Below are positions 11,223 to 15,053 of a stretch of DNA of 64,000 nt, piece by piece (position 1 is the stretch's first letter; the number at the start of each line of letters is the position of its first letter). A model generated the notes under the pieces. It worked only from the letters and a program-made list of their open reading frames with translations, had not been told where the DNA came from and did no database searches. Location: NCBI RefSeq assembly GCF_013167455.1, contig NZ_CP038328.1. One strand, written 5' to 3'. Source of the DNA: Escherichia coli O157:H7. GTDB taxonomy: Bacteria > Pseudomonadota > Gammaproteobacteria > Enterobacterales > Enterobacteriaceae. Position numbers and translations under genes: made by a program.

Positions 11223-12239
11223 TTAATCATCCGGCGTCAGTTCGCCGCGCAGGTTTTGGCTCATGGCCTTGCGAATGGTTTCAGTATCCAGTTCCTGGCT
11301 AAGCAGGTAATGCAGTTTGGTTAGCGTGGCTTCTACAGTCATATCTGCACCGCCAATAACGCCAGCATGGGCGAGGGCGTTACCGGTGGCATAACCACCC
11401 ATATTCACTTTACCGGACATACATTGTGTCAGGTTGACCACCACAATACCGCGATCGCTGGCTTCTTGTAATTCCTGCAGGAAGGCTTTGTTTTGTGGCG
11501 CATTACCCACGCCATAGGAGCGCAGAATCAATGCTTTCACCGGTTGGCGCAGAAAATTGCGCACGACGTCAGCAGAAATCCCTGGATAAATCGTCACTAC
11601 GCCAATTGGTTGTGGGGTGATTGGATGTACGATCAATTCCCCTTCACCGTGCGGGGCGGGTGGCGTATTCAAACGACGAATATGGATACCTGCTTCCAGT
11701 AACGGAGGAAGGTTTGGAGAGGCAAACGCATCAAAACCATCGGCATGGGCTTTGGTAGTGCGGTTGCCGCGATACAGTCGGTTATTAAAAAAGAGTGTTA
11801 CTTCGTTGATCGGATAATTCGCCGCAACGTACAACGCATTCAGCAGATTAATTTGTCCGTCAGAGCGTAACTCAGCCAGCGGGATTTGTGACCCTGTCAC
11901 AATGACCGGTTTACCGAGATTTTCGAGCATGAACGACAGCGCAGAGGCGGTATACGCCATCGTGTCGGTGCCGTGCAGAATGACAAAACCATCATAGTCG
12001 TCATAGTGCGCTTTAATATCTTCAGCAATATGCTGCCAGTCTTCCGGCGTCATATCTGAAGAATCCATCAGCGGCGTATATTCATGAATGGTGAAATCTG
12101 GCATCTCCGGGCGATGGAATTCCGGCATCAGCGCCAGTTGGCGTTGTAGATGACCTGACACCGGTATATAACCCTGCTCGGAACGCTGCATCCCGATGGT
12201 CCCGCCCGTGTAGGCAACGTAAATTGATTTCTTTTGCAT
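11223..12239 (-). CDS. ansA: cytoplasmic L-asparaginase I
   Basis: 338-aa ORF MQKKSIYVAYTGGTIGM..., asparaginase type I threonine-rich active-site N-terminus. Confidence 0.9.
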   Translation of the reverse strand: MQKKSIYVAYTGGTIGMQRSEQGYIPVSGHLQRQLALMPEFHRPEMPDFTIHEYTPLMDSSDMTPEDWQHIAEDIKAHYDDYDGFVILHGTDTMAYTASALSFMLENLGKPVIVTGSQIPLAELRSDGQINLLNALYVAANYPINEVTLFFNNRLYRGNRTTKAHADGFDAFASPNLPPLLEAGIHIRRLNTPPAPHGEGELIVHPITPQPIGVVTIYPGISADVVRNFLRQPVKALILRSYGVGNAPQNKAFLQELQEASDRGIVVVNLTQCMSGKVNMGGYATGNALAHAGVIGGADMTVEATLTKLHYLLSQELDTETIRKAMSQNLRGELTPDD

Positions 12240-12319
12240 GATATTGATATGAATGATATCGAAAGAGCAAAAGTATATACGTGAGGGGCAGCGAGCGCAC
12301 CTGGATACTCTGTGGATAT

Positions 12320-12368
12320 GAGAAAAGTCCGGCAGGACGGAGGGATTAGTGTCCCGCCGGAGAAAAGT
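12320..12368 (-). terminator. intrinsic terminator of the inserted ORF: imperfect hairpin CCGGCGGGAC/GTCCTGCCGG followed by ACTTTTCTC on the minus strand
   Basis: Stem-loop plus T-rich tail immediately after the stop of ORF 12371..13093. Confidence 0.5.
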
Positions 12369-12370
12369 GG

Positions 12371-13093
12371 TTAATCCTGCAACGCATAGGTTACGGTCGT
12401 GACTACGCGTACCGTTTTATTAATCGCCGTAGGATCATCTTCATCACTGCCACTGGCAAAGATCTGGAATACGCCTTGTGAGGCATCGCTAATTGACCCC
12501 ACCTGGCTACCTGAGTCCGTTGCAAATTGTAGTGCGGCGTTGCGTGCATCTTTGGTGGCGGCAGCAATCATCTCAGCGCGCAGTGCGCCAATACCATTAA
12601 AGCGATAGGCGACTTTGCTCTCAGCGATAGCGCCATCCGTAGCGACTTGCAGTTCGTTTAATTTCGCGACGACTTTTTCGACAGCAGCAACATTATGGGT
12701 TTTTATCGTCACTGACCCGTCTGCGTTATAGCGTGGCATTGTGGGATCATCTTTCAGATAAAAGGAATCTGTTCGCTTGCTTGTCCATTGGCCCAGAATT
12801 ATCTCTTTCTCGTTAATCCCCTGAGCATTGAGTTCGGCAACAATTTTTTTCTGCGCTTCTTCCAGTTTCGGGAACAGTTCGCCGGGAACATTACCCTTAA
12901 AGTTAATCGCAATTGTTAATTCCGCCGTATCTGCGCGAACTTCTTTTTCAGAAAGCCCGCGCACATTGACATAACGGTTGTTGGTTTTTAAATGTTTAAC
13001 ACCATCGCCAACAAAATAACCACAGGCGCTAATCCCCAGTCCGAGGACGATAGCGGCAATTAAAGAGGGGGCCTTGTTCACTGATGACTCCAT
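12371..13093 (-). CDS. putative lipoprotein, SIMPL/DUF541-like (periplasmic 26-kDa antigen family); not in the K-12 gene order as I recall it
   Basis: 241 codons from the ATG complement at 13091-13093 (MESSVNKAPSLIAAIVLGLGISACGYF...); signal peptide with lipobox ISAC; the longer ORF-track form begins at a GTG. Confidence 0.65.
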   Translation of the reverse strand: MESSVNKAPSLIAAIVLGLGISACGYFVGDGVKHLKTNNRYVNVRGLSEKEVRADTAELTIAINFKGNVPGELFPKLEEAQKKIVAELNAQGINEKEIILGQWTSKRTDSFYLKDDPTMPRYNADGSVTIKTHNVAAVEKVVAKLNELQVATDGAIAESKVAYRFNGIGALRAEMIAAATKDARNAALQFATDSGSQVGSISDASQGVFQIFASGSDEDDPTAINKTVRVVTTVTYALQD

Positions 13094-13196
13094 ATCAGAT
13101 GCTAAATGAGCAAGGGAATGTAGTGGAGAGAGGGAGTGAAAGACAGTCCGATTCAGGAGTGTGGCCGACAGCATATCGGCCACATTTTTGCAGGAT

Positions 13197-15053
13197 TTAA
13201 CGCACGTTGGCGCAGGTCAGGCAAAACGCATAACGGTTTTGTGGGTCGTTAAACGCCGCCAGCTTGTCGCTTTCACTTTTAACGGTAGAGGCTACCGAGG
13301 CCAGCGGTGCAGGTAACATGGCCTGGAACGCATCTGGCAACATTGCCCGGACAGAACCAGACATGTTGTCCATCACTTTGTCGAAGAAGGTCGGTTCATC
13401 AACGTAGTATTCCAGATGCCACTGTTTCGCTTTTGCCAGCTCTGCTGCTTTGGCGACCGCATCATCGAAATCCCCGAGACTATCGACCAGCCCGTTAGCT
13501 TTTGCGTCCTGACCGGTCCAGACGTGGCCCTGGGCGATTTTATCAATCTGCTCCGGCGTCGAATGACGCGCATCAGCAACCAGCGTGATAAAGCGTTTAT
13601 AGCCATTCTCAATGCTTAACTGCATCATCTGCTGCGCTTCCGGCGGCAGTGCCCTGGTGATAGAAACATCCGCCAGCGGTGAAGTTGAGACACCATCAGT
13701 ATGAACACCAATCGAATCCAGACTATTTTCTACGGTGGTGATCACGCCGAAGATACCAATAGAACCGGTCAGGGTGCTGGGGTTAGCCACAATGTAATTA
13801 GCTGGCGTGGAAATCCAGTAACCACCAGATGCCGCCATGCCGCCCATCGATACAACCACAGGCTTACCCGCTGCCCGGGCTGCTGCCAGTTCAGCGCGAA
13901 TCACTTCAGACGCGGTAACGCTGCCGCCTGGGCTATTAACACGCAGGACAATCGCTTTCACTTTCGGGTCAAGGCGAGCGTCGCGGATTTGTGCCGCAGT
14001 GGTATCACCGCCAACATTCCCCTGAGTTTCCTCGCCATCCATAATTGCGCCATTAGCGAAGACGACACCGATGCTGTCACCGGTATCTGCCGGCGTTTTC
14101 AATGCGTAATCGTAATAACTGATGGCGCGATAATTTTTATCAGCCTTACTCCAGCCGAACTCTTTGGTCAGTGCTTTTTCGATTTCCGCACTCGATGCCA
14201 GTGCATCGACCAGCTTGTTTTCCAGTGCATATTTCGCGGTATCGCCACCGGTTTTGGTTAAACCCTCAAGCAACCCTTGCGCGCCAGGGAATACCTGCTG
14301 AGCAGGGATCTGCCGGTTAGCGGCAACAGTATTCAGATAGTTTTGCCACAGCTCACCAATCCAGCGGCTGTCAGCTTCGCGGGCTGCCGGTGACATGTCA
14401 TCACGAATAAACGGTTCAACGGCAGATTTATACGTACCCACGCGGAACACATGGGTGGAAACTTTCAGCTTATCCAGCAACGATTTGTAGTACAGACCGT
14501 TGGTAGCAAAACCGTGCAAATCCACCACGCCTTGCGGTGACAGCCAAATTTTATTGGCGAAACTGGCGAGATAATATTGCCCCTGGCTGTAGTTCTCGCC
14601 AACGGCATAAACCGGTTTCCCGCTGTCACGAAACTCTTTCAGGGCTTTGCCGATGTACTGCATAGACGGTTGGTCGCCGCCTGCGAAGTTTTTCAGATCC
14701 ATCACGATACCGGTGATATTGCGGTCATCCTTCGCCTGGCGAATGGTATTGACGATATCAAACAGTGAGTTTTCCTGCAGACGATCGGAACTGGCACCAA
14801 GTAGTTGGCGGCTTAATTTACTAAACCGCTGAGAACTGTCGGGTTTATCGACGATCACACCAGAAATGTCCAGCAGCAGTGCACCACGACTGGCCGTTTC
14901 TTTCGAATCACCACCACTGACCTGCATCCAGATCCCCACACCAACCAGCACGAGAAAAATAAAGAACAGGTTAAGTACCATTTCACGGACGAAATTCAGC
15001 AGACGCCACGTCCATTTAAAAAATCCGGCAATAAATCGCCAAAGGGTTCGCAT
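13197..15053 (-). CDS. sppA: signal peptide peptidase A (protease IV)
   Basis: 618 codons from [21 protein letters not shown]; tandem S49 peptidase domains. Confidence 0.9.

Follow-up and report, generated by a model that had tools for sequence, protein, structure and literature searches.

The exact 9-bp direct repeat around a hairpin between a SIMPL-domain gene and ansA in Escherichia coli O157:H7 is probably a terminator U-tract with a look-alike spacer rather than an insertion scar

Does an exact 9-bp direct repeat that brackets a palindrome at the 3' end of a gene missing from most E. coli genomes record the insertion or excision of a mobile segment, or does it belong to the transcription terminator of that gene? 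The question is raised by the interval between sppA and ansA in a 64-kb stretch of E. coli O157:H7 DNA (hereafter the window, in whose positions all coordinates are given), where an open reading frame for a SIMPL-domain protein lies on the minus strand. An earlier note on this DNA had offered both an insertion or excision footprint and a duplicated terminator T-tract as possible explanations. The reading that we prefer, and to which we assign a probability of roughly 0.7, is that the palindrome acts as a Rho-independent terminator for the SIMPL gene, followed by its U-tract and preceded by a spacer that happens to look like that U-tract, and that the repeat came about by substitution and is not the scar of an insertion.

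All genes of the locus are carried by the minus strand; sppA comes first, followed by the SIMPL gene, the hairpin unit, ansA and pncA (Table 1). Over 1.8 kb, genomes of the O157:H7/O55:H7 type match the window at 100% identity. The product of the SIMPL gene matches Pfam PF04402 with E = 4.9e-18, and in identical genomes it bears the RefSeq name 'SIMPL domain-containing protein' (WP_001030441.1). Read from the annotated GTG (window 12995-13081), the N-terminus of the protein is MNKAPSLIAAIVLGLGISAC, which to the eye suggests the signal peptide of a lipoprotein, with I-S-A-C as its lipobox. The stop codon of sppA occupies 13197-13199. A literature search on the sppA-SIMPL-ansA locus found nothing relevant.

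Table 1. Features of the sppA-SIMPL-ansA interval in the window
Feature	Position	Strand	Basis or remark
ansA (asparaginase I), next gene 3' of the putative terminator	11223..12239	-	RefSeq annotation
ansA upstream region, of high identity in SIMPL-bearing and empty alleles; homology resumes here	12240..12316	-	alignments
9-mer copy 3' of the hairpin in gene sense (ACUUUUCUC), putative U-tract	12320..12328	-	5 U in the first 8 nt past the stem
Putative terminator hairpin of the SIMPL gene	12328..12361	-	inverted repeat, fold, kept pairing
9-mer copy 5' of the hairpin in gene sense, stop-to-hairpin spacer (TAA-CC-ACUUUUCUC)	12360..12368	-	
SIMPL/DUF541 gene, 236 aa, GTG start at 13081, TAA stop 12371-12373	12371..13081	-	Pfam PF04402
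sppA terminator hairpin (GTGGCCGA-loop-TCGGCCAC), no U-tract behind it in the window allele	13161..13183	-	

On the plus strand, positions 12320-12373 read GAGAAAAGT (12320-12328)-CCGGCAGGACGGAGGGATTAGTGTCCCGCCG-GAGAAAAGT (12360-12368)-GG-TTA, in which TTA (12371-12373) is the stop codon of the minus-strand ORF and only 2 nt separate that codon from the nearer repeat copy. The perfect repeat flanking the hairpin is real: a repeat search of the window detected both the 9-nt direct repeat and the inverted repeat that abuts it, and GAGAAAAGT occurs exactly twice in the 64 kb, at these two places, against a mean of 0.42 copies in shuffled windows, 6 of 100 of which held at least two. The palindrome is likewise present, but its size had been overstated at 31 bp; the arms (12328-12338 and 12351-12361) are 11 nt long with one mismatch, 91% complementary, and enclose a 12-nt loop, which gives a stem of 10-11 bp whose ends overlap the 9-mer copies by 1-2 nt.

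In gene-sense RNA the hairpin is UCCGGCGGGAC-ACUAAUCCCUCC-GUCCUGCCGGA, an 11-bp stem that includes one G-U pair and closes a loop of 12 nt, and it starts 11 nt past the TAA stop. The whole unit in this sense is UAA-CC-ACUUUUCUC-(CGGCGGGAC-ACUAAUCCCUCC-GUCCUGCCGG)-ACUUUUCUC-AUAUCC, the parentheses marking the hairpin. The predicted fold of the gene-sense RNA has an energy of -21.2 kcal/mol (z = -6.1), a stability reached by none of 200 shuffles; the antisense RNA is less stable (-18.5 kcal/mol, z = -2.6). The U-tract behind the stem, CUUUUCUC, holds 5 U in 8 nt, with a longest consecutive U run of only 4. A simple terminator scan did not call the SIMPL hairpin, the loop limit of the scan being 8 nt against the 12-nt loop found here, and a scan of the region against Rfam at E <= 1 returned no match. 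On the opposite strand the antisense loop contains GGAGGG, followed 4 nt on by a GTG and a 17-codon ORF (plus strand 12339-12402); conservation of GGAGGG does not extend to Escherichia sp. E1V33, E. whittamii or E. albertii, and this combination is probably due to chance.

How far the juxtaposition of repeat and hairpin departs from expectation depends on the null that is used. Among 262 hairpins of the window (stem of at least 8, at most one mismatch, loop of 3-14), no hairpin but that of SIMPL is abutted by a direct repeat of more than 5 nt, and 142 unrelated metagenomic hairpins that share its stem have abutting repeats of 4 nt at most. With uniform base composition the chance of an exact 9-mer match is about 4^-9 per register, or about 1% per 64-kb window, and if both flanks are pyrimidine-rich it is about 0.5^9 = 0.2% per hairpin. 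In view of the single case among the window hairpins and the 4-nt maximum among the 142 controls, the exact abutting 9-mer is unusual under the uniform-composition null, and to that extent the suggestion that it is unlikely by chance was sound, but it is much less unusual once pyrimidine-rich flanks are granted. Pure coincidence is an uncomfortable account of the 9/9 match unless this pyrimidine bias is allowed for.

The history of the gene itself bears on whether anything was inserted here. The site between sppA and ansA is occupied by a SIMPL gene in Escherichia sp. E1V33, E. whittamii and Escherichia sp. MOD1-EC7003, and also in two E. albertii strains, in a contig labelled E. fergusonii and in the relative L041; at the one locus taken from each of three non-Escherichia enterobacterial genera, sppA adjoins ansA and there is no SIMPL gene. 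Nucleotide identity to O157 for SIMPL, ansA and sppA, respectively, is 93.1%, 96.1% and 92.1% in MOD1-EC7003, 88.7%, 92.6% and 91.8% in E1V33, and 80.0%, 89.3% and 88.2% in E. albertii, and the SIMPL identities rank these relatives in the same order as those of ansA and sppA. Since the divergence of SIMPL tracks that of the flanking genes, the comparison indicates vertical descent of the SIMPL gene within Escherichia. Together with its presence at the site throughout the sampled members of the genus, such descent would make the gene an Escherichia-specific, old resident of the site and the K-12-type state the odd one in the genus, and it argues against a recent gain in O157. The description of the ORF as inserted is therefore apt only in that it is absent from K-12-type E. 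coli and from other genera; in this lineage the gene appears to be a genus-wide resident that was not inserted. The tree of the locus is ((E. coli, MOD1), (E1V33, whittamii)), E. albertii. The fergusonii-labelled contig (L032) has an ansA 80% and an sppA 78% identical to those of E. coli, about as distant as the other genera; it keeps the sppA-SIMPL-ansA synteny, and its SIMPL terminator differs, with GGCGGCAAATGCTGCC and then TTTTTAT. Either the species label of this contig (from NCBI, taken from the protein) or the history of the region is odd.

The orthologous hairpins (Table 2) point to a structure that has been maintained in the mRNA. Across six Escherichia sequences, stem pairing is kept in 92% of cells, against at most 51% in slid registers, with a shuffle control that was not significant. 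The hairpin of E. albertii (two strains), which occupies the equivalent position and folds with a 6-nt loop, contributes to the stem comparison a double change from G-C to A-U and a series of GC, GU and AU pairs. Wobble pairs in the gene-sense RNA fall at different places, a G-U at one pair in O157, a G-U at a second in ST131 and a U-G at a third in E1V33 and E. whittamii, and every single-sided change in the stem gives G-U or U-G in gene-sense RNA and an A-C mismatch in antisense. Because these wobbles are valid only in the gene-sense RNA, they suggest that the structure is selected in the mRNA and that the hairpin is the terminator of the gene, an identification made in the earlier note and with which anatomy, fold and strand-specific wobbles all agree.

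Table 2. Hairpin arms and flanking sequences of the SIMPL gene in E. coli and relatives (gene sense)
Lineage	Upstream flank	5' arm	3' arm	Downstream flank	Upstream-downstream 9-mer identity
E. coli	ACTTTTCTC	CGGCGGGAC	GTCCTGCCGG (O157) / GTTCTGCCGG (ST131)	ACTTTTCTC	9/9
MOD1-EC7003	ACTTTTCAC	CGGCGGTGAC	GTTCGCCGG	ACTTTTCGC	8/9
E1V33	ACTTGTCCC	CGGCGGGAT	GTTCCGCCGG	ACTTTTCTC	7/9
E. whittamii	ATTTGTCCC	CGGCGGGAT	GTTCCGCCGG	ACTTTTCTC	6/9
E. albertii	TCAGAACCGCTT (unrelated)	CAACGGAACG	CGTTCCGTCG	CGCTTTCCTTCTC	repeat absent
L041	GACCCTCTGT	GGCGGA	TCCGCC	CATTGTCATTCC	repeat absent

The repeat is distributed more narrowly than the hairpin, which both E. albertii and L041 possess without it. On this comparison the hairpin is older than the repeat, since E. 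albertii has the one without the other, and the repeat is either younger than the hairpin or unstable. Among the four ingroup lineages it is the upstream 9-mer that drifts, the downstream one being conserved, and 4 of 5 ingroup sequences retain the U-tract. Measured from the stop codon, the GGCGG core of the stem lies 12 nt away in E. coli and in the cryptic clades, 13 nt in E. albertii and 10 nt in L041, and this near-constancy (10-13 nt) implies that the repeat added no length. The E. albertii hairpin (L031 ~3212-3270; L040 1311-1365) is flanked by an exact 5-nt direct repeat of its own, CGCTT, which is unrelated to the E. coli 9-mer and 3 of whose 5 bases also take part in a predicted outer CGC/GCG helix; it may be a by-product of pairing together with chance.

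Within E. coli, the SIMPL gene is present in 943 of 5,426 complete genomes and missing from 83%, and in 4,482 genomes sppA is followed directly by ansA. When the 5,426 genomes were searched with the 65-nt repeat-hairpin-repeat unit (blastn, word 11), the unit was found in exactly the 943 SIMPL-bearing genomes, once in each, chromosomal and at full length; it was found in none of the 4,482 genomes lacking the gene, and never on a plasmid or at another locus. An arrangement present irrespective of the ORF, which had been considered as a possible outcome, is thus not what these genomes contain. Two alleles of the unit predominate, an O157/O55 type (351 genomes) and a B2/ST131 type that has one G-to-A change in the plus-strand arm (591 genomes). 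The sole indel among the 943 is in strain 2013C-4465 (L004 ~1201-1269), where four additional bases, GAGA (TCTC in gene sense), separate the stem from the upstream 9-mer at the stem/repeat junction; they apparently came from slippage in a (TC)n run, and they demonstrate that the spacer tolerates a change of length. No second copy of the hairpin with up to 3 mismatches occurs in the window, and no variant from which the hairpin had been precisely removed between the repeats occurs among the 943 genomes. Over window positions 11900-13700, the flanks of the empty haplotype are 96-97% and the B2 filled haplotype 98.1% identical to the window, and on this difference the presence/absence polymorphism of the SIMPL gene appears to be old and to consist of two deep haplotypes.

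The earlier note had proposed the empty site as a check on the footprint. K-12 and four other empty alleles differ from the filled allele over the whole interval that begins at the sppA stop and ends about 80 nt before the ansA ATG; common to empty and filled alleles are the sppA hairpin (GTGGCCGAC...GTCGGCCAC) and the ansA-proximal segment from TATCC on. Between these common parts K-12 has 53 nt, ATTATTTTTTACGTCGACGAATCCTCTTCCCGCTGTTTCGCCCCATATTTCCT (L001 708-760), which do not fold (-1.1 kcal/mol) and whose length is exactly that of the segment from the SIMPL stop to TATCC (window 12318-12370). A single copy of GAGAAAAGT had been predicted at the empty site, and none with up to 2 mismatches exists in the K-12 sppA-ansA intergenic region, a result in which the five empty alleles are alike.

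What the empty alleles hold instead resembles a remnant. The first ~21 nt of the 53-nt segment match the sppA-proximal sequence of the fergusonii-labelled contig (ATTTTTTTACCTCGACGAATC versus ATTTTTTTGTCTCCAGAATC), and the last ~30 nt are similar to the SIMPL terminator from its loop through the 3' arm to the U-tract, most of all to that of E1V33 and E. whittamii (TCCCGCTGTCTCGCCCCATATTTCCT versus TCCCTCTGTTCCGCCGGACTTTTCTCA). In global alignments of the empty segment compared with composition-preserving shuffles, p was <= 0.002 for E1V33 and E. whittamii and 0.02 for O157. The tetranucleotide AATC is common to the 5' region (TGAATCGG) and the hairpin loop (CTAATCCC), and it is probable from these resemblances that the empty allele is an old deletion of the SIMPL gene with a junction near AATC and a terminator remnant that has decayed. 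Identity in the remnant is only ~55-70%, against 97% in the flanks; a remnant so much more diverged than its flanks implies that the empty haplotype was not recently derived from any sampled filled allele. Single-gap 'jumping' alignments for the deletion junction were fragmented and uninformative except against E1V33 and E. whittamii, and the empty intergenic region could not be aligned with that of the other genera.

Against this background, a target-site duplication of 9 bp or a footprint of excision is a very improbable origin for the repeat, whether the mobile segment was the ORF as a cassette or a small palindromic element. The idea has an obvious appeal, as several transposons (Tn5, Tn10, IS1) duplicate 9 bp of target, the repeat is perfect and lies directly against an inverted repeat, and the ORF is lacking from most E. 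coli and from three other enterobacterial genera. However, both copies lie on the ansA side of the ORF and bracket the hairpin only, the empty sites carry a different 53-nt segment without the 9-mer, and the ORF occupies this site throughout Escherichia. The hairpin without a repeat in E. albertii, the constant length of the spacer between stop and hairpin, the single copy per genome and the lack of any hairpin-excised variant among the 943 genomes all weigh in the same direction, as does the fact that the loops and flanks of the 142 metagenomic hairpins sharing this stem bear no relation to those of the SIMPL hairpin. A mobile palindromic element was also considered in its own right and rejected: across the window, the E. 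coli genomes and metagenome contigs, the hairpin was found at this locus only, the 142 other matches being unrelated GC-rich hairpins.

The sequence behind a second hairpin, that of sppA, differs between alleles. Directly behind the sppA hairpin, SIMPL-bearing E. coli, the cryptic clades and E. albertii have ACTCCTGAATCGG, without a U-tract, and the K-12-type and fergusonii-labelled alleles have ATT(A)TTTTTT, a T-run of 9-10 nt, a difference of 9 nt. It seems probable from these sequences that sppA transcripts run into the SIMPL gene in O157- and B2-type strains and end at the SIMPL hairpin. Because the K-12 segment and the SIMPL 3' region are both 53 nt long, the upstream 9-mer was considered as a displaced sppA U-tract; this was rejected, as the fergusonii-labelled T-run is contiguous with the sppA hairpin and also with a CTCC.GAATC motif that K-12 keeps too. 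The sppA hairpin aligned better on the reverse strand, which raised the possibility that it is inverted between alleles; this was rejected because the hairpin originally had an A-run and a T-run on its sides, of which each allele has lost one.

In the terminator reading that we prefer, the hairpin would form in the gene-sense RNA 11 nt past the stop, and RNA polymerase would release in the ACUUUUCUC that follows. The same terminator would probably also end transcripts that read through from sppA, the hairpin of which has lost its U-tract, and termination at this point would shield the ansA promoter region just downstream. The copy at 12320-12328 would serve as the U-tract, and the copy at 12360-12368 would be the short pyrimidine-rich spacer between stop and hairpin, the two having reached or retained their identity, which is found only in E. 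coli, via substitutions in a spacer of constant length. From the sequence and the predicted fold we infer that termination does occur at this hairpin, and we likewise infer that the perfect match is of chance or compositional origin; nothing indicates that the 9/9 match has a function of its own.

The proposal of a duplicated terminator T-tract was correct in so far as one of the copies is the T-tract. Duplication is neither required nor demonstrated, and could have happened as a one-off ancient copying event in the ancestor of E. coli and the cryptic clades, in which a copy of the T-tract overwrote the spacer and then decayed elsewhere while staying intact in E. coli. Local duplication is one conceivable route; conversion, through replication slippage or a template switch across the base of the hairpin, is another. 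We regard such an event as unlikely, although several observations would fit it: the upstream flanks of the four ingroup lineages are between 6/9 and 9/9 like the downstream tract and those of the outgroups E. albertii and L041 are not, an ancestor with a perfect repeat needs as few substitutions (4) as one with an imperfect repeat, and the exact abutting 9-mer is an outlier against both null sets (262 and 142 hairpins). On the other hand, the length of the spacer is unchanged (12 versus 13 versus 10 nt), which would demand an exact 9-for-9 replacement, there is no ongoing homogenisation, and the spacer of L041, GACCCTCTGT, is already pyrimidine-rich without any repeat. Concerted evolution of the two flanks was rejected as well, the copies differing from each other in MOD1, E1V33 and E. 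whittamii.

Substitutional drift is accordingly favoured over a one-off replacement as the source of the 9/9 match, because we know of no standard mechanism for an exact 9-for-9 replacement of sequence and because the copies are not being homogenised. Drift would have started from a spacer that was already pyrimidine-rich, as that of L041 is, and passed through an ingroup ancestor with 7/9 to 9/9 identity, and parsimony over the four ingroup lineages counts 4 changes whether the ancestral repeat was perfect and decayed or imperfect and converged.

Finally, the two matching tracts could both be U-rich for a reason. [quoted passage not shown] (2012). By this analogy the unit could be a selected module for Hfq binding, located where the SIMPL mRNA ends or in an sRNA derived from its 3'UTR; the order of elements is the same, the gene-sense RNA being ACUUUUCUC-hairpin-ACUUUUCUC, and in E. 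coli, as in the class I modules, a single-stranded U-rich stretch lies directly 5' of the stem and a U-rich tail lies 3' of it. We nevertheless think this improbable. In E1V33 and E. whittamii the U-rich motif 5' of the stem (ACUUUUC in E. coli) is eroded, E. albertii lacks it, and U is replaced by G, C or A in the upstream run of the three other ingroup species. Unlike the class I sRNA modules, moreover, the SIMPL element stands at the end of an mRNA, with a 3'UTR of only 11 nt before the hairpin, an unconserved upstream U-run and a short tail that has only four consecutive U, and Rfam offers no match to it. Were the match between the U-rich stretches not accidental, an Hfq-type module could act as a post-transcriptional regulator specific to the SIMPL-bearing lineages (O157/O55 and B2), an outcome at least as improbable as the module itself.

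All of these observations suggest that the locus is a routine terminator of little biological weight, and that what looked like an insertion scar is the terminator's own U-tract with a spacer that resembles it. The SIMPL gene is an old Escherichia resident missing from most E. coli rather than an acquisition of O157. The clean failure at the empty site illustrates how that test separates a target-site duplication from a look-alike, and, where direct repeats abut terminator hairpins, the conservation of spacer length in outgroups is worth checking before a footprint is called.

The SIMPL unit can be set beside several known systems. Like the target-site duplications of Tn5/IS50, Tn10/IS10 and IS1 and the substrates of their precise excision, it has an exact 9-bp direct repeat flanking an inverted repeat; unlike the transposons themselves, the segment that it encloses is a single-copy hairpin of 32 nt that has neither a transposase nor the terminal repeats of any known element, and unlike their duplications it has a hairpin older than the repeat, no added length, no matching empty site and no excised variant. 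REP/BIME palindromes of E. coli are likewise short, extragenic, GC-rich and placed at gene 3' ends, but REPs number hundreds of copies per genome, whereas the SIMPL hairpin occurs once, at this locus only, and is unlike other hairpins with the same stem. Bidirectional terminators have an A-rich 5' flank, in contrast to the pyrimidine-rich flank here, which in E. coli equals the U-tract. From typical Rho-independent terminators, the loops of which usually have about 3-8 nt, the SIMPL hairpin differs in a 12-nt loop that exceeds this range and in a short, interrupted U-tract (CUUUUCUC). In its other properties it is like them: a GC-rich stem-loop just past the stop codon on the sense strand, a U-rich tract within 0-2 nt of the stem, pairing kept by wobble and compensatory changes in the sense RNA, and a position between two genes of the same strand, upstream of the next promoter region.
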